From Candidatus Wolframiiraptor sinensis (GTDB lineage: Archaea; Thermoproteota; Nitrososphaeria_A; Caldarchaeales; Wolframiiraptoraceae), in assembly GCA_023261815.1 (NCBI GenBank), contig JALNKA010000002.1, positions 76,438-140,437 on the forward strand: a stretch of 64,000 nt of DNA, written 5' to 3'. Position 1 is the stretch's first letter; every line of letters starts with the position of its first letter. A model generated the notes under the pieces. It saw only the letters and a list, made by a program, of their open reading frames with translations. It was not told the DNA's origin and ran no database searches. Of the stretch, positions 1 to 42,939 are shown piece after piece. The translations under genes and the position numbers were made by a program.

Positions 1-998
1 AGGCCTATCTCCGTATAATCCGTCGCAACGCCCGCCATAAGGAACACGAGCGCGTTGCCGAAAGCCCCGGTCTGCCCGTAAATCTCTAGGGCGAGTGGGG
101 CCGTTCCCTCCGAGCACACCTCTATCACGGTCGCGAAGATCAGCGTCGCCAGCAAACCGGGGAGAGTCGGCCCCATATAATTCATGAGGATCTCCCCGGG
201 GACGTAGGCCCGAATCGCGGCGGCGATGAGCATCCCTATAACGATCCACCACAATATCATCCTAGTCAGCTCCCATGAGCCTTTAAGAACGCCGACCAGA
301 TCTCTGAAAACATTTCCAGCGCTGAGATCATACCCGCGCCACCTTGCCCTAATATCGACTAGAATCGAGAAGTTATCCTCGATGTTACCTTGGTGAGCGT
401 TGCACTCCACCAAGCCAGCCCTATCCAGCGCCTGATACAGTAGACCCGTGATTACGGCGATAGCTATCGCGGAGATGAGGAATATCAAGCCTTTAAGCCC
501 AAAGAGCCCGAGCAGCAGTATGGTGATCGGCAGGCTGGCCCACGGCGAGGCCAGTAGAAATGCGATCACGGCGGGTGTTGAAGCCCCCTTCCTATAAAGC
601 TCCATGGATATCGCGAGAATTCCATGGGAGCAGGCGGATGCGAGAAATCCAAGGCCAACCGAGTAGATCACGTTCCTCTTATCGTGCCGGGCGAGAAGTC
701 TCCAGACGTACTCACGCGGAACAAATCGGTCGATCAAGCCGCCCACGAGCAGCCCAACAGTCATCGGCAGCCATATAATCCCCACATAATCGTGGAATGA
801 GGATAATAGGCTCCCCAGAACCGATGCTCCGAATTTGTCTAAGACAATATGGGCCGCGTAGAGGGCGATCAGCCCCAAAGCTACTAGGAGAAGCCTCTCC
901 TCATACCACCTCTTAGATTCACGGGAACAAACATGACAGCACTCACCATCATGCTCGACCCCACAAGCACGACCCAAACTCTCAACCACCCCCAGCAC
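1..998 (-). CDS. Predicted permease, DUF318/COG0701 (ArsP/YraQ-like) family; partial, C-terminus lies beyond window start
   Basis: Minus-strand frame is open from position 1 up to a TAG at 1005-1007. Translation is TM-rich and contains two Cys-Ser repeats (ASACSHG, EVCSEG) typical of two-repeat DUF318 permeases. The N-terminus is Cys/His-rich (CGVEHDGECCHVCS). No in-frame ATG exists; candidate starts are GTG at 996-998 or 987-989. Not in the ORF track because it runs off the window. Confidence 0.55.
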   Translation of the reverse strand, partial: MLGVVESLGRACGVEHDGECCHVCSRESKRWYEERLLLVALGLIALYAAHIVLDKFGASVLGSLLSSFHDYVGIIWLPMTVGLLVGGLIDRFVPREYVWRLLARHDKRNVIYSVGLGFLASACSHGILAISMELYRKGASTPAVIAFLLASPWASLPITILLLGLFGLKGLIFLISAIAIAVITGLLYQALDRAGLVECNAHQGNIEDNFSILVDIRARWRGYDLSAGNVFRDLVGVLKGSWELTRMILWWIVIGMLIAAAIRAYVPGEILMNYMGPTLPGLLATLIFATVIEVCSEGTAPLALEIYGQTGAFGNALVFLMAGVATDYTEIG

Positions 999-1113: not shown

Positions 1114-1874
1114 ATGATGCTTAACTTGAGCGATAGGGTGGCTATAGTGACCGGCGCAGGCCAGGGGATAGGCAGGGAGGTCTTCCTGCAGCTTGCTCAA
1201 GCCGGCGCAAAGGTGGTTTTGATCGATGTTAGTGATAAGGTTTTCGATGTTTTGAGGGAGATTAGGGGTTTTGGCGGAGATGGTCTGGCCATTAAATGCG
1301 ATGTATCGCGTTGGGAGGATGTTCAGGCGGCGGTGAATCAGGTACTGGATAAATTCGGGAGGATTGATATACTCGTCAATAATGCGGGCATTTATCCGTT
1401 TAAGCCGTTTACGGAGATGGGCGAGCAGGATTGGGATAAGGTTCTAGACGTAAATCTCAAGGGAGTATTCAATTTCACGAGGGCCGTTCTGCCGAGGATG
1501 ATTGAGCAGAGAAGGGGTAAGATAAGGGTAAGATAATAAACATATCCTCAATCGCTGGATCTGTCGTGGGCTTTCCGAACCTGGTCCACTACTCGGCTAG
1601 CAAGGCGGGGATAATTGGGTTCACGAGGGCGCTGGCCCTCGAGACAGCTCAATACGGCATAACCGTGAATGCGATATCCCCAGGTCCTATCGAGACGCCA
1701 GGCATAGGGGTTCTAAGCAAGGAGGCCTACGAGCAGGTGAGGCGAGCTATTCCCCTAGGGAGATTTGGGAAGCCGGAGGAGGTCGCCTACTTAGTGCTCT
1801 TTCTGGCGAGCGATAAATCGGACTTCATAACCGGGCAAAATATAGTGATAGATGGCGGCTACACAATACAGTAG
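1114..1874 (+). pseudogene. Short-chain dehydrogenase/reductase (FabG-like SDR) disrupted by an 11-bp tandem duplication
   Basis: ORF 1114-1536 carries the TGAGQGIG Rossmann motif and NNAG. ORF 1566-1874 carries the YSASK catalytic motif and PG. A perfect direct repeat gggtaagataa x2 at 1515-1536 shifts the frame. Deleting one copy restores the canonical RRGKIINISSIAGS. Confidence 0.8.
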
Positions 1875-1935: not shown

Positions 1936-2898
1936 TTAGCCTTCCTCTTCTATAGCTATGGGCACTTCCAGCTCGAAGCTCCTGTATCCCCTCGTGATCA
2001 TCAGCTTGATTCTGCCCTTGTCCATTGATTCCTCCAAAATTTTTCTGAGATCGCTGATGCTGCGGATGGCGTGGCCGTTTGCCCCGGTTATTACATCCCC
2101 CTCCCTGATGCCGTAGATGTGCGCTGGGCTTCCCTCGAAAACCCTGACGACCAGAAGCCCCTCGGAGACCCTTAAGGATAAATATCTGGCAATATGCTCT
2201 CTCAGCGGCATCGTTATCACGCCGATCCAGGGCCTTAATGCTCTGCCATATCTGGAGACCATCTCGATGAATCTCTTTATCGTGTTTATCGGTATAGCGA
2301 AGCCGATTCCCTGGGCGTATGGTATCATGGCCGTAGTCATGCCTATGACCTCGCCCCTCATGTTGAGGAGCGGCCCGCCGCTATTGCCGGGATTTATCGC
2401 CGCGCCCGTCTGGATCAAGTCCTCCAAGATGAAGCCGTCGCCCTCGATAGTTCTCCCGACGGCGCTCACGATGCCGAGGCTAACATTCGGCCCGGGAAGC
2501 CCGAGAGGACTCCCAATAGCTAAAACCAGCTCTCCAACTTTGACTTCATCGGAGTCGCCGAGCTTCAGAGGCTTGAGATCCGCACCTGGAACTCTCAGGA
2601 GTGCGACATCACGGGATGGCGATCTAGCCTCAATTCTTCCCTCAAGCCTCCTACCGCCGATCAACACCTCTATAGACCCGCTCTCGGAGACCACGTGATT
2701 ATTGGTCACGAGATGCCCGTCGTGGGAGATGGCGAAAGCCGATCCTACGCCTCTCACGGGGACAGGCCTGAGGAAGGCATCCACCCTTATCCCAGTCGCT
2801 ATAACGCTCACAACGCTATTCCACGCCCCCTCGACCAAGTTGCTTATCTCTTTTGAGATCTGCTCCAGCAGCTCTCCAGACTGAAAACCACACCTCAT
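1936..2898 (-). CDS. htrA: HtrA/DegP-family serine protease with C-terminal PDZ domain
   Basis: Trypsin-like catalytic triad context (H..D..GNSGGPL) followed by a PDZ-like region; 320 aa. Confidence 0.9.
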   Translation of the reverse strand: MRCGFQSGELLEQISKEISNLVEGAWNSVVSVIATGIRVDAFLRPVPVRGVGSAFAISHDGHLVTNNHVVSESGSIEVLIGGRRLEGRIEARSPSRDVALLRVPGADLKPLKLGDSDEVKVGELVLAIGSPLGLPGPNVSLGIVSAVGRTIEGDGFILEDLIQTGAAINPGNSGGPLLNMRGEVIGMTTAMIPYAQGIGFAIPINTIKRFIEMVSRYGRALRPWIGVITMPLREHIARYLSLRVSEGLLVVRVFEGSPAHIYGIREGDVITGANGHAIRSISDLRKILEESMDKGRIKLMITRGYRSFELEVPIAIEEEG

Positions 2899-2926
2899 AC
2901 CGATATGAGGTTAGGTGCCGTGAGTT

Positions 2927-2963
2927 AAAAATGATTTGCGGGCCGGCAATCATCTGCCCGGCC
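2927..2963 (-). terminator. GC-rich hairpin (GGCCGG/CCGGCC, 11-nt loop) followed by a T5 tract on the minus-strand transcript, just after the HTH gene stop
   Basis: Inverted repeat 2941-2946/2958-2963. On the minus strand it is followed by cattttt (complement of 2927-2933). Confidence 0.35.
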
Positions 2964-2968
2964 GATCA

Positions 2969-3373
2969 TCAGATGCTCGATGCTACTTGTTTGGCGAATA
3001 TTGTTGGGCATACATTGCAGCGCGAGACATCAATCCTGGGATCAAGCCTCTTGTGATAGGAGCAGAAATACTTCATGGATAGAATGTAGGAGGTTATCTC
3101 GATAATCTTTTCATGAATTTTGTCTTCGTCAAGCTCGCCCATGAATATTTTTGCGGCGAGATCTTCGATCATCCGCGTTACATCGCTGAATCTGGTAAGC
3201 TTCATGCCAGCCCCTCTCTCCGACCTGATATACCTCGTGATTGCCGAGCGTGATAGGCCGAGCTTTCTAGCGGCCTCAGCCTCCATCATCCCCATCTTGA
3301 CAAGCTCTCTTGCCAAGTGCCGCCTCACGGAGGGCACCAGATACCTCGCGACCAGCTCAAATACGTCCCTCAT
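2969..3373 (-). CDS. Transcriptional regulator with a sigma-70 region-4-like HTH (DUF134/COG2522-like) and a C-terminal Cys/His cluster
   Basis: HTH segment EAEAARKLGLSRSAITRYI. C-terminal CSYH...C-N-V-C suggests a metal or redox site. Sits 2 nt downstream of the DUF438 gene on the same strand. Confidence 0.6.
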   Translation of the reverse strand: MRDVFELVARYLVPSVRRHLARELVKMGMMEAEAARKLGLSRSAITRYIRSERGAGMKLTRFSDVTRMIEDLAAKIFMGELDEDKIHEKIIEITSYILSMKYFCSYHKRLDPRIDVSRCNVCPTIFAKQVASSI

Positions 3374-3375
3374 GG

Positions 3376-4698
3376 CTATAGCACTATGATCTTCTTCCTT
3401 ATTTCTTCTGGATTGTTTATCACATCTGTGAAGTCCTCGACTATCTCGACCGTTCCGAGGAGCTCGCCTTCTTCATTTTTCACTCCGACTATCAGGACCC
3501 TTACTATCCTGTCGCCGATCCTCGTCCAGAACTCCCTGTAATCGGCCTTCCCCATCTTTATCTCGTCAACGACCTTCCTGACGGCGCCCTCGAGCCTCGG
3601 CGGATGACAGTACTCGAGTCTCCTCCCGATTATCGTCTTCGCCCTCACGAAGCGCTGGTGGAATACGCTCTCGGTGAAGAACTTGATCCTATCATCCTTA
3701 TTGGCATATGTGATCTCGATTGGAAGTGCTCTGAAGAGTGCTTTAACTTCCTCGGGGCTTAGGAACCCTGTCCCGAGATCCAGATCTCCTTCCGAGCGGA
3801 TTTCATAGGTGTCGGGCTGAAGGCTCTGCGAGAGGGCCATGATCCTGAACTCCTGCGGGAGCTTCTCGACCTGCTCCGGCGATATCCCGGCCTTCAGTTG
3901 ATGGGGCAGGATGGGCTCCGCCTCGCTTCTCCACCTCTCATCAACCTCAACTAGGTATCCGAGGTCCTCGGCTATCTCGGCTACCGCTGCCCACTCGCCC
4001 TCCGTTAGCAGGGCCCAGACGGCCGGAAAGAGTATCTTGTTCTCCCTGAAGACTAGGTCTGAGGTTTCATGGGCTATCTCGAGAGCTCTATTAGCCACCT
4101 CATTCACTCGAGATCTATTGAACTCGGTCTCCAACTTGCCGATCGCGTCTAGGAGGCCTCGAAGCTTCACCCTCACTTGGTCCTCTCTACCCCACATCAC
4201 CCTCGGAACAGCCACTATCCCCCTCCGCTCAAGATACGGGAACAACAGCATCTGGATCTTGCGATAGTGAAGCCTGATCTTCGCCAGCTCGAGAGCGGCT
4301 TGCTTCAAGCCCGCAAGAGCGCCTCTAGCCTCTTCATCGCTTCCAGCTTGCAGGATGGCGAAGGCATGTAGGCTCAGGGCATCCGCTTGCCTCACTATCC
4401 ACTCATTCTCCCTAATGAGAAGGTCGAGCGGGTGTCCCCTCGGAACTCCTTCGAGCTCCCTTGATCTGAGATGCTCCCTAAATAACTCGACATGAAGATC
4501 GCACAGCCTCAGTATCTCATCTATCTTAATGCCCTCTCTAACTAGCTGCTGCTCGATCAGTGGTATCTCGAAAGGAGATACCTGAGAAAGGACATCGCCG
4601 AACTCTCTTTTCAGCTTCTCAACACTCTCGCCAGCATGCAAAGCCTTCAAAATTCTCTTAATGGCCTCAATCTTATCAGGCGCGGATTTTGTTGACAC
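3376..4698 (-). CDS. DUF1858-hemerythrin-like(HHE)-DUF438 protein with C-terminal PAS domain (putative O2/NO/redox or metal sensor)
   Basis: N-terminal DUF1858-like helix bundle, His/Glu-rich hemerythrin-like segments, a central DUF438 region and a C-terminal PAS-like fold. This is the typical Pfam DUF438 protein architecture. Confidence 0.6.
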   Translation of the reverse strand: MSTKSAPDKIEAIKRILKALHAGESVEKLKREFGDVLSQVSPFEIPLIEQQLVREGIKIDEILRLCDLHVELFREHLRSRELEGVPRGHPLDLLIRENEWIVRQADALSLHAFAILQAGSDEEARGALAGLKQAALELAKIRLHYRKIQMLLFPYLERRGIVAVPRVMWGREDQVRVKLRGLLDAIGKLETEFNRSRVNEVANRALEIAHETSDLVFRENKILFPAVWALLTEGEWAAVAEIAEDLGYLVEVDERWRSEAEPILPHQLKAGISPEQVEKLPQEFRIMALSQSLQPDTYEIRSEGDLDLGTGFLSPEEVKALFRALPIEITYANKDDRIKFFTESVFHQRFVRAKTIIGRRLEYCHPPRLEGAVRKVVDEIKMGKADYREFWTRIGDRIVRVLIVGVKNEEGELLGTVEIVEDFTDVINNPEEIRKKIIVL

Positions 4699-4950
4699 GC
4701 GTCAACACCTCATACAATTTCTCTTCTTACTTGCTAATAAACCTTATCTCGCGAAAAAGCCCTGCATAAGGCATCACACCGCAAAGAGACGATAAACAAA
4801 TGTCTTGGATGATGTTGGGGTGCGGCGGGTCTGCCGGGGGAAATCATGTTTGGCGCCTCACATCCCTTCCATGAGAAGCGGAGATATTCGCATTTTATTG
4901 CTGAGGGATGTGGATGATGATCCTCGCCTGAAGTTTCTCGCGTTGCACGT

Positions 4951-5847
4951 TTAACGCGGGTAGACTTCCACGCCATTCGCGGGGTTTCGGCACTCCTTCT
5001 CGAACTCCTCCATCAGCCTTAGGGTTATTTTTCCGGCTCTACCATCCCCTATGATTCTTCCAGCAATCTTTGTTACCGGGAGGATCTCGGCTCCTGTTCC
5101 GGTCACGAATACCTCATCCGCCGTTATCAGCTCGAAGGGCGTTATCTCCCTTTCCTCGACCTGATATCCGAGCTTTCGGGCGAGCTTCATGGTGAAGGCC
5201 CTAGTTATCCCGGGCAGCATTCCAGTGGTCGGCGGCGGGGTTGCTATCACGCCGTTCTTGACCATGAATATATTCGTTGATGTTGTCTCGGCGACGAAGC
5301 CCCTCTCATCGAGCATGACCGCGTCATCGGCTCCTGCGCTTATCGCCTCGAGCTTCGCCAGAATGCTGTTCAAGTAGTTCAGGGATTTTATCTGATGCGT
5401 CGTCGCGTCAACCCTATCCCTCCTGACGGATGAGATTATCAGGGAGATCCCCCTCATCTTCGCCTCCCTGCTGTATAGTGTTAGAGCCGGCTCCGTGATG
5501 ATTATGACATTCGGGTTACTGCACTTCCTTGGATCTAGGCCGAGGTCTCCGATCCCGCGTGTAACCACGAGCCTTATGTATGCATCGCGCAGGCCATTTC
5601 TCCTCAGGGTCTCGACGACCGCCTCCACCATCTCATCTTTCGTCAATGGTATCTCGAGCATTATCGCCTTCGCCGAGTCGTATAGCCTATCGATGTGCTC
5701 TCTGAGCATGAAGACTACCCCATCGTATTCTCTTATCCCCTCGAAGACCCCGTCTCCGTAGAGGAATCCGTGATCGTAGACCGAGATCATGGCCCTGCTC
5801 TTGGGGTAATATTCCCCGTTAATGTAGACGAGAAGCTCGCCGCTCAT
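4951..5847 (-). CDS. ilvE: Branched-chain amino acid aminotransferase (fold type IV PLP enzyme)
   Basis: Class IV aminotransferase hallmarks (VFEGIR, TRG..DLGL, ETTSTNIF, VTGTGAE). Confidence 0.9.
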   Translation of the reverse strand: MSGELLVYINGEYYPKSRAMISVYDHGFLYGDGVFEGIREYDGVVFMLREHIDRLYDSAKAIMLEIPLTKDEMVEAVVETLRRNGLRDAYIRLVVTRGIGDLGLDPRKCSNPNVIIITEPALTLYSREAKMRGISLIISSVRRDRVDATTHQIKSLNYLNSILAKLEAISAGADDAVMLDERGFVAETTSTNIFMVKNGVIATPPPTTGMLPGITRAFTMKLARKLGYQVEEREITPFELITADEVFVTGTGAEILPVTKIAGRIIGDGRAGKITLRLMEEFEKECRNPANGVEVYPR

Positions 5848-5953
5848 GGCTTCTCTCAGCTTATAGTTTCCAGAAGATAAAAGTTCCGGCTGGGGGAGAG
5901 CGCCTCAGCTAAACAATTATAGCGGGTGGGGCGATTGAGATTCCGGGATCCTG

Positions 5954-6388
5954 ATGGTGGAGGAGCACTACGCGCTCGACCCGGTTGATCTCAAGATAAT
6001 AGAACTCCTGAGGAGGGATGGGAGAATGCCCTTCGTGGAGCTGGGGAAGAGGATCGGCTTATCCGAGGCGGCGGTTAGGCGGAGGGTGAAGATGCTCCAA
6101 GAGCGTGGGATACTCAGGAAGTTCACGATAGAGGTTGATGAGGGCTTTCAGGTGAGCGCGGTTATCTTCCTCCAGTTCGAGTCGAGCAGACTTCCGGGAG
6201 AGATAGTCGAGAAGATAGCGAAGGTGCCGGGCGTCCGGACGATCTACGAGCTGACCGGGAGATTCGACGCCATAGTGATAATCTCGGCATCCAAGATCTC
6301 GGAGCTTAATGAAAGAATAGACAGGATAAGAGCAATAGAGGGCGTGAGGAGCACGGAGACGGCGGTGGTTCTAAGGATCATAAGCTAG
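5954..6388 (+). CDS. lrp: Lrp/AsnC family transcriptional regulator
   Basis: N-terminal HTH (DLKIIELLRRDGRMPFVELGKRIGLSEAAVRRRV) plus a C-terminal RAM domain. Divergent from ilvE. Confidence 0.9.
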   Translation: MVEEHYALDPVDLKIIELLRRDGRMPFVELGKRIGLSEAAVRRRVKMLQERGILRKFTIEVDEGFQVSAVIFLQFESSRLPGEIVEKIAKVPGVRTIYELTGRFDAIVIISASKISELNERIDRIRAIEGVRSTETAVVLRIIS

Positions 6389-6561: not shown

Positions 6562-7578
6562 ATGATGCTCCGGGAGTTCGATGCCGGTCCGGGCTCAATT
6601 ATCCTAGACCCGTTCCTAGGCTCGGGCACAACCCTACTGGCTTGCAAAGAGCTCGGCGTGGACGGCGTGGGCATCGACGTGGCCCCGCTCGCAGTCTTCG
6701 TGAGCAAAGTCAAGATAGCGGACTATGATCTGGAGGAGCTTAAGAGGGCCGCGAGCTGGCTCCTAAGCCAGCCATTCCAGAGGCCGGATCTCTCGGGCGT
6801 GAGCGGTTTCGTCAAGCAGTTCTTCCTAAAGCCATCGCTCGAGGACATAATCTTCTTCAGGGAGAAGATTCGCGAGATCGAGAACCCCCTCGTCAGGAAC
6901 TTCTTCACTCTGGCCCTCATGAACGCGGCGATGAAGGTTTCTCTCGCCTACAAGGATGGAGCGGTTTTAAAAGTGGTGAGGGATAAGCCTGTCCCACCCT
7001 TCAGGAAGTTCTTCAAGAGAATGGTCAAGAAGATGATAGGAGATTTGACGAGGCTGAGCTTCAAGCCATGCAGGCTGGAGGTGCATCTCGGCGACGCGAG
7101 GAAGATGGACTTCCTAGAAGATGAGATGTTCGACGCGATAATAACCTCGCCGCCATACCTCAACAAGATCGAGTACACGAAAGTTTACAGGATCGAGTAC
7201 GAGCTCTTTTTCGGCGACGTGAAGATAGATCCCATCAGGTCCTATCTCGGGCTGAATCCGAAGAACGTCGTGGACCAGTTTCCGGAGCTGAATCTTCCGG
7301 AGATCGCGAAAGCATACTTCCACGATATGAGGCTCTGCCTCGAGGAGATGTTCAGGGTCCTGAAGCCCGGCGGCAGGGTCGCGCTGGTCGTCGCCGGAGG
7401 AGCCTTCCCGGATAGGGTTGTCGAGTCGGATAAGCTCATCATGAAGCTCGCCGAGATCGTCGGGTTCGAGCCGGAGAGGCTGATCGCCGTGAACAAGAGG
7501 GTTGCGACAACACGGAGGGTGATAAAAATCGGAGAAGCGAGGGAGAGCATACTGATATTCTCGAAGCCGGCCCCCTAG
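6562..7578 (+). CDS. SAM-dependent methyltransferase, N6-adenine/N4-cytosine DNA MTase-like (DPFLGSGTT and SPPY motifs); possibly truncated or frameshifted at the N-terminus
   Basis: Motif I-like DPFLGSGTT near the N-terminus and motif IV-like SPPY about 170 aa later. An upstream ORF from ATG 6441 joins this frame if the T6 run at 6522-6527 is read as T5. No restriction-enzyme partner is evident. Confidence 0.6.
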   Translation: MMLREFDAGPGSIILDPFLGSGTTLLACKELGVDGVGIDVAPLAVFVSKVKIADYDLEELKRAASWLLSQPFQRPDLSGVSGFVKQFFLKPSLEDIIFFREKIREIENPLVRNFFTLALMNAAMKVSLAYKDGAVLKVVRDKPVPPFRKFFKRMVKKMIGDLTRLSFKPCRLEVHLGDARKMDFLEDEMFDAIITSPPYLNKIEYTKVYRIEYELFFGDVKIDPIRSYLGLNPKNVVDQFPELNLPEIAKAYFHDMRLCLEEMFRVLKPGGRVALVVAGGAFPDRVVESDKLIMKLAEIVGFEPERLIAVNKRVATTRRVIKIGEARESILIFSKPAP

Positions 7579-40167: not shown

Positions 40168-42939
40168 GTGAGAGGCTTGAGGTTCGGGCCCGAGGAATAT
40201 TCTCTAAACTTCCTGAGGGAGCGCGGCTATGCTAGGAAGCGCTGTATTAGCTGCGGCGAGCACTTCTGGACCCTCAACCCAGATAGGGTGGTTTGCGGCG
40301 AGTCTCCATGCGAGCCCTATCGATTTGTCGGCAAGAGCTTGACCAGGCGGAGAATGAGCCTCCGCGAGGTTCGAGAAGCATTTCTCAATTTCTTTGAAAG
40401 GAGGGGTCACGCGGTAATCGCGCCATACCCGGTCGTGGCCCGATGGAGATCCGACATATTCCTAACAGACGCGAGCATAGTCGATTTCCAGCCATTCGTC
40501 ACGTCGGGCATAGCTCCTCCGCCAGCGAACCCCCTGGTCATAAGCCAGCCATGCATAAGGCTCGTCGACATAGATAAGGTTGGGCTGACGTTCGGCAGGC
40601 ACCTCACGATCTTCGAGATGGGAGGCGCTCACGCCTTCAACTACCCCGACAAGGAGGTTTACTGGAAGGAGGAGACAGTTCAATACTATCACGAGTTCGC
40701 GCAGGAGGTATTCGGCATACCAGAGGAGGAGATAATCTACAAGGAGGGCGTGTGGGCTGGCGGGGGCAACGCTGGGCCATGCTTCGAGGCGATTTCATAT
40801 GGGCTCGAGGTCGCGACCCTCGTCTTCATGCAATACAAGACCGCTGATGGAGATCTCGTGAAGCTCCCGATAAGGACTGTTGACACGGGTTATGGCATGG
40901 AGCGGTTCACATGGCTTACTCAGGGGACGCCGAGCTGCTTCGACGCGATCTATGGGAAGCTTTACCCGAGGCTCAAGGAAATAATCGAGATCCCAGAGGT
41001 TGATGGAGAGCTCCTGATCAGATATTCGCCCTACACGGCTCTCGTAGTGCCGAAGGCAGGGATGACGATCGCGGAGGCGAGGAGGAGGATCTCCGAGGCC
41101 TCGGGAATCCCTCTTGAGACGATAATGAGCGAGATCGCGCCGCTCGAGAAGATCTACGCCTCGCTAGATTTCACTAAGTCGATAGCATTCATAATGAGCG
41201 AGGGCGTCGTCCCATCGAATGTGAGGGTCGGATACTTGGCGAGGCTCCTCATCAGGAAGGCTTATAGGCTTCTCAAGGATCTCGGATACGAGGACAAGCT
41301 CATAGACCTGATAAACCTCCAGATAGACTACTGGGGCGAGGACTTCCCGCACCTGAGGGCGATGAGGGACGAGACTATAGACATAATCGAGCATGAGGTG
41401 AGGAAGTTCGAGGACACGATAGCGAAGGGCGTGAGCTACATCGAGAGGGAGCTCGCGGAGATGAGGAGGAGCGGCGCAGCCGAGGTTCCCACAGAGTTCC
41501 TCATCAAGGCATACGATGAGAGGGGGATAACGCCGGACATCGTGAAGCCCGTGGCGGAGAAGCTCGGAATGGAGCTCAGGATCCCGGAGAACTTCTACGA
41601 GCTGGTGGCATCCAGGCACTTGAGGGAGGAGCCGGTGAAGGCAGCAGATGAGGCGCTGAGGATGCTCGAGGAGGAGTTCAGAGATCTCCCGTCAACTGAG
41701 AAGCTATATTACAAGGATCCGAGCATGCTCGAGTTCGAGGCGAGGGTTCTAAGGGTTCGCGGAAATAACGTCGTCCTAGATAGGACATGCTTCTATCCCG
41801 AGGGCGGGGGAGCGGTATCAGATCAAGGAACGTTGAGGCACTCCGGAGGAGAATGCAGGGTGCTCGATGCCCAGATTCTCGAGGGCGGCGTCATAGTCCA
41901 TAAGATTGATGGGCCTCCGCCGGCTGAGGGCGAGCTCGTCAAGGGCTTCGTTGATCGGGCGCGCAGGTTCTCGCTCATGAGGCATCACACGGCGACGCAC
42001 ATAATCTTGGGCGCCGCTAGGAGGGTTCTCGGGAAGCATGCATGGCAGGCTGGAGCTAGGAAGGAGCCCGAGCTCGCGAGGCTTGACATAAGCCATCATA
42101 GGAGGCTTAGCGCCGAGGAGATCACGCGGATAGAGGAGGAGGCCAACAGGATAGTGGCCGCCAGAATACCCGTCAGGATAATGGAGATGGATAGGAATGA
42201 GGCCGAGAGAAGATACGGGTTCCAGCTTTATCAGGGTGGCGAGGTGCCGTCGGCGACTATAAGGGTCGTGGAGATACCGGGATGGGATGCCGAGGCATGC
42301 GGAGGTCTCCACGTCGAGAACACGGAGGACGTGGGCCTGATAAAGATAATCAGGACTGAGAGGATACAGGATGGCGTTGAGAGGCTCGTATTCGCGGCCG
42401 GGCCGGCGGCCCTACGATACATCCAGCAGAACTGGATCCTGACATTGAGGATCGCGGAGAAGCTCGGAGCACCCGTCGAGGCAGTTGAGAAAGTGCTGGA
42501 TGAGACGCTATCGGAATTGAAGAGGCTCAGATCTTCCGTTAGAAGGCTTCTCTCAGCGGCCGCGGAGCTGAGATATCGCGAGCTGAAGGAGAAGCCCATG
42601 AACCTGAGCGGCATAAAGATCTATACTGCGCGTGAGCTCGAGGATGATAGAGACTATGTACTCATGATCTCGGATAAGCTCCTAGAGGGCGATGAGCCCG
42701 CGTGCTTTATCGCGGCATATGGCGGTGAGAAGCCCCACCTCCTGATTACGGCGAATGAGGCGGCGGTGAGATCCGGGGTTCACGCTGGAAAGCTCGCGTC
42801 AATTATAGCCGGGGAGCTCGGCGGGAAGGGAGGGGGAAGAGATAGGCTCGGGCAAGGAGGCCTCGGCAAAGATGTCTCTGAGGCGAGATTGGTCGAGGTA
42901 TCAGCGAGAGCTTTGCGCCAGCAGCTGAATAAGTCTTAG
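40168..42939 (+). CDS. alaS: Alanyl-tRNA synthetase
   Basis: Archaeal AlaS N-terminus (EY..NFLRERGY.RKRC..CGEHFWT), editing-domain HxxxH motifs and a C-terminal DHHA1-like region; 923 aa. Confidence 0.95.
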   Translation: MRGLRFGPEEYSLNFLRERGYARKRCISCGEHFWTLNPDRVVCGESPCEPYRFVGKSLTRRRMSLREVREAFLNFFERRGHAVIAPYPVVARWRSDIFLTDASIVDFQPFVTSGIAPPPANPLVISQPCIRLVDIDKVGLTFGRHLTIFEMGGAHAFNYPDKEVYWKEETVQYYHEFAQEVFGIPEEEIIYKEGVWAGGGNAGPCFEAISYGLEVATLVFMQYKTADGDLVKLPIRTVDTGYGMERFTWLTQGTPSCFDAIYGKLYPRLKEIIEIPEVDGELLIRYSPYTALVVPKAGMTIAEARRRISEASGIPLETIMSEIAPLEKIYASLDFTKSIAFIMSEGVVPSNVRVGYLARLLIRKAYRLLKDLGYEDKLIDLINLQIDYWGEDFPHLRAMRDETIDIIEHEVRKFEDTIAKGVSYIERELAEMRRSGAAEVPTEFLIKAYDERGITPDIVKPVAEKLGMELRIPENFYELVASRHLREEPVKAADEALRMLEEEFRDLPSTEKLYYKDPSMLEFEARVLRVRGNNVVLDRTCFYPEGGGAVSDQGTLRHSGGECRVLDAQILEGGVIVHKIDGPPPAEGELVKGFVDRARRFSLMRHHTATHIILGAARRVLGKHAWQAGARKEPELARLDISHHRRLSAEEITRIEEEANRIVAARIPVRIMEMDRNEAERRYGFQLYQGGEVPSATIRVVEIPGWDAEACGGLHVENTEDVGLIKIIRTERIQDGVERLVFAAGPAALRYIQQNWILTLRIAEKLGAPVEAVEKVLDETLSELKRLRSSVRRLLSAAAELRYRELKEKPMNLSGIKIYTARELEDDRDYVLMISDKLLEGDEPACFIAAYGGEKPHLLITANEAAVRSGVHAGKLASIIAGELGGKGGGRDRLGQGGLGKDVSEARLVEVSARALRQQLNKS

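Follow-up and report, generated by a model that had tools for sequence, protein, structure and literature searches.

The subject of this report is a two-gene locus, together with its promoter region and the htrA gene that follows it, in a 64,000-nucleotide (nt) stretch of contig JALNKA010000002.1 of the archaeon Candidatus Wolframiiraptor sinensis (the whole stretch is referred to as the window, and positions are counted from its first letter). The first gene encodes a 440-amino acid (aa) protein with DUF438, hemerythrin-like and PAS_10 domains, which we call the sensor for its presumed role, and the second encodes a 134-aa helix-turn-helix (HTH) protein, which we call the regulator. These two genes are neighbors in most archaeal species that carry the sensor, while the genes around them change, and a 14-bp palindrome placed over the sensor start codon is a candidate operator of the regulator.

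Conservation of the gene pair

The features of the pair and of its promoter region in the window are as follows.

3376 to 4698, minus strand: sensor gene, 440 aa; DUF438, non-canonical hemerythrin-like bundle, conserved linker and PAS_10; presumed signal-input partner
2969 to 3373, minus strand: regulator gene, 134 aa; putative Xre/Cro-type HTH and C-terminal C104-x2-H107...C119-x2-C122 motif
4692 to 4705, no strand assigned: candidate operator, TTGACGCGTGTCAA on the minus strand, one mismatch from TTGACACGTGTCAA; the sensor GTG (4698-4696) forms palindrome positions 8-10
4706 to 4710, minus strand: AGGTG, putative Shine-Dalgarno-like element directly before the palindrome
4735 to 4741, minus strand: TTTATTA, putative TATA-like box, 29 nt upstream of the palindrome and 36 nt upstream of the GTG

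One genome per GTDB species was scanned with an alignment of the sensor, yielding 80 loci from 80 species, and the open reading frames (ORFs) called in these loci were searched with a hidden Markov model of the regulator family. In 68/80 loci, the sensor gene was followed immediately by the regulator gene on the same strand; the latter was split by a frameshift in two further loci (L057 and L094), and two loci stop at a contig edge. The distance from the sensor stop to the regulator start was between -4 and +4 nt in 71 loci, most commonly 2 nt, a spacing that fits translational coupling. An initial reading of the window from its letters alone (the sequence-only reading) had given a gap of 2 nt, and this gap can be read directly from the sequence: the TAG stop of the sensor gene, which starts with GTG, is followed by "cc" and then by the ATG of the regulator gene.

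The pair was carried by Thermoproteota, Brockarchaeota, Aigarchaeota, Korarchaeota, Bathyarchaeia and Thermoplasmata metagenome-assembled genomes (MAGs). The genes beyond the pair differ completely between lineages, and sensor genes without the regulator showed no recurrent alternative downstream partner gene. Close relatives with 70-77% identical regulators keep both genes at the same spacing, and the identical 134-aa protein occurs, in the same gene order, in several NCBI MAGs labelled "Nitrososphaerota archaeon" (e.g., GCA_038892755.1 and GCA_023252705.1); by sensor identity, the nearest named genomes are those of Candidatus Wolframiiraptor gerlachensis (82%) and Ca. W. allenii (81%). As hundreds of homologues exist for each of the two genes, they are not chance reading frames. 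The proposal of the sequence-only reading that they form one functional sensor/regulator module withstood both of the refutations named for it, as the hemerythrin, DUF438 and PAS homologies are real and the two genes remain neighbors in related genomes amid changing flanks; the interpretation as a whole is partly supported.

A palindrome over the sensor start codon

The sensor upstream regions contain a 14-bp perfect palindrome, TTGACACGTGTCAA. Allowing up to three mismatches between -150 and +10 of the sensor start, it was found in 60/74 loci, and in 50 of these 60 it begins exactly at -7 from the start codon, such that the ATG or GTG forms palindrome positions 8-10. Among 717,284 flanking positions there was no match with two or fewer mismatches, and there were 7 with three mismatches. 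The copy at 4692-4705 is the only TGAC-N4-GTCA in the 64-kb window; a three-mismatch match at 40880 lies inside a 923-aa ORF and was judged to be due to chance.

In a matrix of 49 sites, the T-G-A-C of the non-coding left arm was conserved in 44-49/49 sites, codon 2 was TCA in 48-49/49 and codon 3 started with A in 49/49. Sensor genes that lack the palindrome have TCG, TCC or TCA at codon 2. Fixation of TCA, although Ser has six codons and the palindrome-less genes vary, indicates a constraint on the DNA and not on the protein. GGTG precedes the palindrome in most loci (positions -3 to 0 of the position weight matrix), and a TTTATWA box equivalent to that of the window is found at equal distance in most of the 83 aligned upstream regions. 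A copy of the palindrome also lies directly upstream of the TATA box in L045, L046, L058, L064, L068, L073, L079, L090 and L091, sometimes in addition to the copy at the start codon; such copies are outside the transcript, which argues against a purely RNA-level role.

Presence of the palindrome was associated with adjacency of the regulator (both present, 56 loci; regulator only, 6; palindrome only, 2; neither, 6, after correction of three start-codon misassignments; P = 1.7e-4, Fisher test, to be taken as indicative only because the loci are phylogenetically related). Archaeal repressors classically have their operator just past the TATA box, covering the probable start of transcription, and this same placement of the palindrome suggests autorepression. 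Separately, four Ignisphaera-type loci (L031, L035, L039 and L050) keep the regulator and have a degenerate left half-site (ATAACTCGTGTCAT); of the two loci with a frameshifted regulator gene, L057 has a palindrome with 4 mismatches and L094 keeps a site with 2 mismatches.

The regulator family

The 134-aa protein had been classed by the sequence-only reading with sigma-70 region-4 or DUF134 proteins, an assignment that we abandon. The window protein has no DUF134 or Sigma70_r4 match in Pfam and scores 20.9 bits with HTH_3 (PF01381), below the cut-off of 23. A profile search of 1.84 billion representatives recovered 706 clusters at E ≤ 1e-3 and 103 at E ≤ 1e-10, nearly all of whose members are full-length (approx. 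120-140 aa). Among 95 family representatives, HTH_3 matched 80 at E ≤ 0.01 (best, 8.7e-10), while DUF134 and Sigma70_r4_2 matched 6 and 34, respectively, weakly and always under their cut-offs. These profile comparisons point to an Xre/Cro-like HTH.

The CSYH...CNVC cluster noted earlier is present as C104-S-Y-H107...C119-N-V-C122. Across the 95 representatives, P14 and Y48 are invariant, and conservation reaches 90% or more at L24, L38, R53, C104, H107, C119 and C122. In a Bathyarchaeia clade, Cys takes the place of His107 (Cys4); this exchange, together with the four conserved residues, is the behavior expected of metal ligands. Bathyarchaeia regulators have an additional CxxC (C92 and C95) and a conserved N-terminal P-C-E motif, which may form a second metal or disulfide site. 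An AlphaFold2 model of the 134-aa protein is all-helical, with a predicted local distance difference test (pLDDT) score of 96. No Pfam or NCBIfam model covers the C-terminal half of the family, no match was found between the 134-aa protein and PDB sequences, and a Foldseek comparison of the model with the PDB gave nothing significant (best E 0.6, template modeling score ≤ 0.33), with only the HTH parts of Xre, HigA and C-protein structures aligning.

Regulators without a sensor gene and their linkage to HtrA

Distant Bathyarchaeia regulators (23-28% identity) occur without the sensor gene. On 7/7 contigs looked up, a 311-aa HtrA is encoded downstream on the same strand (an HTH_24 gene intervenes in L014 and L099), and genes for rubrerythrin, thioredoxin, FMN reductase, Cu-ATPase, ferredoxin-thioredoxin reductase, glutaredoxin and NiFe hydrogenase are found around these regulators. 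A metagenome scan with a Bathyarchaeia-only regulator alignment gave 80 further loci, none of which has the sensor. HtrA is the next downstream gene in 43/79 of these loci and lies two genes downstream in 3 more, often followed by a membrane protein and thioredoxin; a divergent gene for a TrmB-like protein of approx. 330 aa is located upstream in 55/79.

The Bathyarchaeia loci carry ATGACATACGTCAT, with the same TGAC-N4-GTCA core, usually twice, approx. 21 bp apart and immediately upstream of the TATA box of the regulator gene. One to three copies of TGAC-N4-GTCA were found upstream of the regulator gene in 71/77 loci, compared to 7 copies elsewhere (436,689 nt). The palindrome is associated exclusively with this regulator family. 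Only the regulator, with its HTH and Cys-His-Cys-Cys (CHCC) motif, is encoded in both types of locus, which makes it the strongest candidate for a palindrome-binding protein.

The layout shared by L101-L180, L013-L016 and L097-L100 runs from the divergent TrmB-like gene through tandem palindromes to the regulator, HtrA, a 194-aa membrane protein and thioredoxin; with NiFe hydrogenase, FMN reductase, rubrerythrin and Cu-ATPase genes nearby, it is an apparent redox-defense island.

Among sensor-carrying genomes, HtrA was found near the pair in three settings only, i.e., the Wolframiiraptor clade, where an aldehyde dehydrogenase gene lies between the regulator and htrA, the lineage of the window, where htrA is directly adjacent, and a Desulfurococcus MAG (L058), in which it likewise comes next to the regulator gene, after a gap of 44 nt. 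The window therefore joins both conserved pairings, sensor with regulator and regulator with HtrA. In the Wolframiiraptor clade, the aldehyde dehydrogenase gene starts 15-24 nt past the regulator stop (L001, L002, L004, L005 and L017-L019) and is split into two ORFs in L001 and L004.

htrA and its upstream spacer in the window

As the sequence-only reading had stated, htrA lies downstream of the pair on the same strand. The gene and the elements in the 70-nt spacer between it and the regulator gene are as follows.

1936 to 2898, minus strand: htrA, 320 aa; Trypsin_2 and PDZ serine protease; recurrent downstream partner of the regulator family
2941 to 2963, minus strand: GC-rich inverted repeat GGCCGGG...GCCGGCC, 5 nt after the regulator stop; possible weak terminator or protein site
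2925 to 2932, minus strand: ATTTTTAA, 26 nt before the ATG; T-run of the putative terminator and/or TATA-like box of htrA

Pfam identified Trypsin_2 (120 bits) and PDZ_6 (39.8 bits) in the HtrA protein, which also matched TIGR02037 (E 1e-76, under its cut-off); the motifs around the His, Asp and Ser residues (TNNHVV, SRDVALL and GNSGGP) are readable in the sequence, and no N-terminal signal or transmembrane segment is visible.

A terminator-like hairpin had been described between the two genes. The inverted repeat at 2941-2963 is present, is followed 8 nt later by a T5 run and is kept only in near-identical relatives; as a significant RNA structure it was rejected, with the intergenic RNA folding no better than shuffled sequences (z 0.25). 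In Wolframiiraptor relatives, TTTTTATA stands about as far from the htrA ATG, and the spacing of ATTTTTAA would suit the TATA box of an htrA transcript without a leader. We read the spacer as a weak terminator combined with a promoter of htrA's own; expression of htrA by read-through from the pair is possible. The earlier suggestion that the pair may control htrA is in line with the adjacency of regulator and HtrA in this lineage, in L058 and in 43/79 Bathyarchaeia loci, which is evidence from synteny; it is weakened by the TATA-like box of htrA itself and by its upstream region, where no operator and, in the 70-nt spacer, no palindrome was found.

An 8-bp inverted repeat, ACCTCATA-tcgg-TATGAGGT (2892-2911, minus strand), lies across the htrA start codon, and its arms are kept in L011 despite changes in the spacer. 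It was flagged by a scan for sigma-70 promoters and intrinsic terminators, a model not applicable to archaea, and candidate roles are a protein site or masking of the start codon on read-through transcripts.

Domains of the 440-aa protein

The sequence-only reading gave the architecture of the sensor as DUF1858-hemerythrin-DUF438-PAS. Three of these four domains were recovered by Pfam, i.e., DUF438 (PF04282; residues 13-78, 86.2 bits, above the gathering score), Hemerythrin/HHE (PF01814; residues 89-227, 33.5 bits against a cut-off of 25.3, and 37.6 bits for the isolated domain) and PAS_10 (PF13596; residues 319-424, 68.8 bits, above the gathering score). DUF1858 (PF08984) had to be dropped, as neither the whole protein (E ≤ 0.01) nor its domains searched singly (E ≤ 10) gave a match, and the order of domains is instead DUF438-hemerythrin-linker-PAS_10, with DUF438 at the N-terminus. 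No NCBIfam model matched the protein.

The P. furiosus protein PF0695 (PDB 3cax, solved by structural genomics) aligns with residues 85-424 (E 2e-68; profile E 2e-93), and S. mutans PDB 2qkp aligns with the PAS_10 part (E 2e-17). The structure of PF0695 is a four-helix bundle (PMC3143127), and the hemerythrin region of the sensor is predicted by homology to adopt this fold. The AlphaFold2 model of DUF438 has four helices (pLDDT 75) and no informative neighbor in the PDB by Foldseek; a suspected link of DUF438 to DUF1858 or ScdA_N was supported neither by this comparison nor by domain searches at E ≤ 10. In both archaea and bacteria, DUF438 is found more often the higher the growth temperature (PMC6219164).

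Homologues with 55-65% identity to the sensor are found in many thermophilic archaeal lineages. An alignment of 17 diverse members revealed invariant residues in DUF438 (C66, D67 and H69, in the motif L65-C66-D67-L68-H69), in the bundle (H89, E97, H144, E157, E172, D173 and E219) and in PAS_10 (C364-H365-P-P-R), as well as many invariant charged residues in PAS_10 and the linker (R352, R359, R368, E370, R400, E418, E421 and D422).

Two established classes were considered and rejected. Membership in the RIC/YtfE/ScdA family of iron-center repair proteins was ruled out, as the 440-aa protein has no ScdA_N match, no YtfE match among PDB sequences and an incomplete set of di-iron ligands. A classical two-component system was likewise discarded, as HisKA/HATPase_c and REC domains were found in neither protein with Pfam and NCBIfam.

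Stress and redox context

At least one redox, metal or stress gene neighbors the sensor in 35/80 loci. The neighbors include Cu-ATPase (12 loci), ZIP (11), rubrerythrin (10), nitroreductase (8), PadR-TRASH (6), peroxiredoxin (5), DJ-1 (5), HtrA (4), flavodiiron-type protein (4) and Rieske (3), and the gene right after the regulator often encodes rubrerythrin, a flavodiiron-type protein or Cu-ATPase. None of these neighboring stress genes could be assigned the operator, as the flanks contained no match with two or fewer mismatches.

A different element was observed in Brockarchaeota-type loci, where an inverted repeat, TTTTC-GG-GAAA(A), abuts the TATA box of exactly two genes, those for the sensor and rubrerythrin. 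The element TTCGGRAAA (TTTTC-NN-GAAAA) is located approx. 40-50 nt before the sensor and rubrerythrin starts in L021, L023, L027-L029, L032, L033, L044 and L088, and the rubrerythrin gene bears it in six loci. Its occurrence on both genes suggests co-regulation of the sensor with peroxide defense by a second, shared regulator.

PG_0686 of P. gingivalis, the only relative of the sensor that has been studied, contains iron and is induced under oxidative stress; the mutant is sensitive to H2O2 and shows strong down-regulation of rubrerythrin (PMC10101095). The redox or metal theme of the sequence-only reading is thus supported indirectly, by the stress-type neighbors and by the stress induction of this relative.

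Other features of the window

An Rfam scan of the window gave no match. The window begins inside an ArsP_1-type permease gene (1-998, minus strand), as judged from synteny with L007, and the truncation of this gene at the window edge explains the absence of listed ORFs in 1-998. A short-chain dehydrogenase gene (1114-1874, plus strand) is split into two ORFs of 140 and 102 aa, as it is in the identical MAG contigs L007-L010, whereas L011 and L012, which are 96% related, and Wolframiiraptor relatives have an unbroken copy (248-249 aa); the split marks either a pseudogene with a frameshift or an assembly error common to these contigs. Beyond the sensor, a class IV aminotransferase gene (4951-5847, minus strand) is divergent from an Lrp/AsnC-family regulator gene (5954-6388, plus strand), and this region (4951-6388) is a typical amino acid-responsive pair unconnected with the sensor and regulator. 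It is followed at 6562-7578 (plus strand) by a gene for a 338-aa N6/N4 DNA methyltransferase (N6_N4_Mtase in the annotation of L007) with no obvious restriction enzyme gene adjoining.

Proposed mechanism

We propose that a dimer of the regulator represses its own operon at the palindrome and that repression is lifted when the hemerythrin-PAS protein passes on an oxidant, iron or redox signal, a reading to which we give an even chance of being right. In this model, the dimer of the 134-aa, probably Xre/Cro-type, HTH protein would bind TTGACACGTGTCAA through the core TGAC-N4-GTCA, and its C-terminal helical module would hold a Cys3His metal site (Cys4 in the Bathyarchaeia branch). With the palindrome just downstream of the TATA box and over the first start codon, occupancy would block transcription of the operon, which favors repression over activation as the probable effect of binding. 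The 440-aa protein, made from the same transcript, would be the signal-input partner of the regulator. Oxygen, peroxide, nitric oxide (NO), iron or redox imbalance would alter its non-canonical iron site or its PAS_10 pocket, the signal would reach the regulator through contact or through action on the metal site of the latter, and the operator would then be released. htrA, the putative ancestral partner gene, would be expressed via read-through and/or its own promoter in the same stress response.

Several observations weigh against this proposal. The canonical hemerythrin pattern is H...HxxxE...H...HxxxE, with five His and two carboxylates in classical hemerythrins. In the sensor family, only H89, H144, E172/D173 and E219 are invariant among the di-iron ligands (17-30 homologues); helix 2 reads HYRKIQ (HYNREE in PF0695) and helix 3 reads GREDQ (TKHDE in PF0695), so that the helix-2 carboxylate position is Ile148/Gln149 and the helix-3 His position is Glu172, and helix 4 has no His four residues before E219. 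The pattern itself is summarized in PMC10101095. By fold and profile the 440-aa protein is hemerythrin-like with a metal site predicted to be non-canonical, and as its canonical ligand set is incomplete, binding of iron or O2 is hypothetical. No fused output domains were seen on the 440-aa protein among the homologues listed, and its conservation exceeds that of the regulator (57% vs. 39% median identity to the respective window protein in 66 distant pairs); both observations suit an enzyme or effector as well as a sensor. The palindrome occurs only at the promoter of the operon itself, and none was found before neighboring stress genes or the htrA of the window; a wider regulon of the 134-aa regulator is accordingly conjecture. 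Finally, both the metal site and the operator are retained by paralogues that have no sensor gene, and the regulator may therefore sense by itself.

This last point leads to the main alternative, which we regard as possible though less likely, i.e., that the regulator is a one-component sensor through its own Cys3His or Cys4 site (a redox-active zinc-thiolate or Fe-S center), while the 440-aa protein is regulated cargo, e.g., for iron-center repair, scavenging or detoxification, as HtrA would be in Bathyarchaeia. Such a role would suit the sensor-less paralogues, in which the metal motif and TGAC-N4-GTCA precede an effector gene (htrA in 43/79), as well as the confinement of the operator to the promoter of its own operon, the enzyme-like conservation of the 440-aa protein, its presence without the regulator in approx. 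8/80 genomes and presumably in P. furiosus (PF0695), and the stress induction of its homologue PG_0686. However, coupling of the two genes at 0-4 nt is nearly universal across phyla, which is seen more typically between proteins that interact physically than between a repressor and the gene it regulates; the great majority of PAS domains serve as signal-input modules, and no catalytic domain could be recognized in the 440-aa protein.

It is improbable that the 440-aa protein makes a small-molecule messenger upon exposure to oxidants, with the HTH protein as its receptor. Recombinant PG_0686 was reported to make cyclic di-GMP (c-di-GMP) from GTP without a GGDEF motif, and c-di-GMP was lower in the mutant (PMC10101095); the many invariant charged residues of PAS_10 and the linker would also be consistent with such an activity. 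However, the activity has been claimed in one unconventional report only, for a bacterial protein whose C-terminus differs (DUF1858); a nucleotide-cyclase fold could not be detected in the 440-aa protein, and the conserved feature of the regulator is a metal-ligand motif and not a nucleotide pocket. Moreover, we know of no description of c-di-GMP signaling in archaea.

Least probable of all is that the palindrome is an RNA hairpin masking the start codon, which it spans in 50 loci, or the site of another factor, such as the second putative HTH protein (TrmB-like) encoded divergently from the same intergenic region in 55/79 Bathyarchaeia loci, as the spacer-less 14-mer allows a stem of at most 5 bp that would be weak at thermophilic temperatures, its arms are invariant and do not covary, it lies upstream of the TATA box and outside the mRNA in at least 8 sensor loci and in all Bathyarchaeia loci, its presence tracks the regulator, the only protein common to both kinds of locus, and sensor genes without it vary their Ser codon.

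Extending the proposed repression and release model, we tentatively suggest, with less confidence than doubt, that the pair represents a phylum-spanning master switch for oxidant and iron stress in anaerobic thermophilic archaea. The hemerythrin-PAS protein would directly control a new-fold Cys3His metallo-regulator, by contact or by transfer or removal of iron or NO at the metal site, with the operator in the start codon of its own operon, and the regulator family, with or without the sensor, would govern an HtrA-centered protein-quality and redox defense.

Significance

How strictly anaerobic hyperthermophilic archaea sense O2, peroxide or iron stress is largely unknown, and few regulators have been studied (MsvR, SurR, OxsR and RosR). 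To our knowledge, none of these is from Desulfurococcales, Brockarchaeota, Korarchaeota, Aigarchaeota or Bathyarchaeia. The locus described here provides, from sequence, a complete candidate circuit composed of a DUF438/PAS_10 input protein, a DNA-binding output protein and an exact 14-bp candidate operator, whose sequence permits prediction of the regulon in any genome that carries the pair. The candidate switch over the sensor start codon makes an uncharacterized stress-response circuit directly testable, with the pair kept in approx. 70 thermophilic archaeal species. In addition, a cytoplasmic HtrA-type protease of archaea is tied to a specific regulator family.

Comparison with known systems

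In the open-access literature we found no published functional study of this archaeal module, of the gene pairing, of the regulator family or of the operator. The closest relatives of the sensor are PF0695 and PG_0686. PF0695, the function of which is not assigned, shares the bundle, linker and PAS_10 over residues 85-424; unlike the window protein, it is without the N-terminal DUF438 and has the more canonical ligands (HYNREE and TKHDE vs. HYRKIQ and GREDQ). PG_0686, compared here by description, likewise has a hemerythrin-like domain, a coiled linker and PAS_10, and like the window protein it lacks the classic five-His motif. It differs in being bacterial and 517 aa long, in its DUF1858 end and in its reported c-di-GMP output, and no adjacent HTH-CHCC regulator has been described for it.

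In Desulfovibrio DcrH, Vibrio Bhr-DGC and human FBXL5, a four-helix-bundle iron domain provides O2, iron or redox input to a signaling output; this input has the full di-iron ligand set and is fused to its output (MCP, GGDEF and F-box, respectively). Here, in contrast, the output would reside in a DNA-binding protein of its own, coupled by translation, and fewer of the ligands are present.

Redox-responsive, Cys-dependent transcription factors are known from archaea, SurR among them. MsvR (PMC3729527) and OxsR (PMC9426492) are Cys-dependent regulators of oxidative stress genes in anaerobic or halophilic archaea. Like the regulator proposed here, MsvR, OxsR and SurR are often autoregulated, with palindromes near the TATA box or the transcription start site; they differ in having unrelated folds (V4R/ArsR-like and TrmB-type winged helix), in the MsvR motif (TTCG-N7-9-CGAA) and in having no dedicated hemerythrin-PAS partner.

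The Rrf2-family regulators IscR (with a Cys3His [2Fe-2S] cluster) and NsrR carry a redox- or NO-labile center on three Cys plus His, or on four Cys, and the hemerythrin-like di-iron repair protein YtfE/RIC belongs to the same stress response. This is an analogy only, as homology in sequence or fold is lacking, the regulator has no Rrf2 match and the 440-aa protein has no ScdA_N or DUF1858. The Xre/Cro autorepressors, i.e., C-proteins of restriction-modification systems, HigA antitoxins and P22 c2, resemble the regulator in its N-terminal HTH, gave the top, though non-significant, Foldseek matches and bind short palindromes at their own promoters as dimers; they have no counterpart to the 70-residue helical C-terminal CHCC module of the regulator.

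Overall, the logic of a stress-responsive, autoregulated transcription factor with a partner protein is known, while the combination of a non-canonical hemerythrin-PAS_10 protein, a Cys3His HTH protein without a solved whole-fold equivalent and a candidate operator within the start codon is new.

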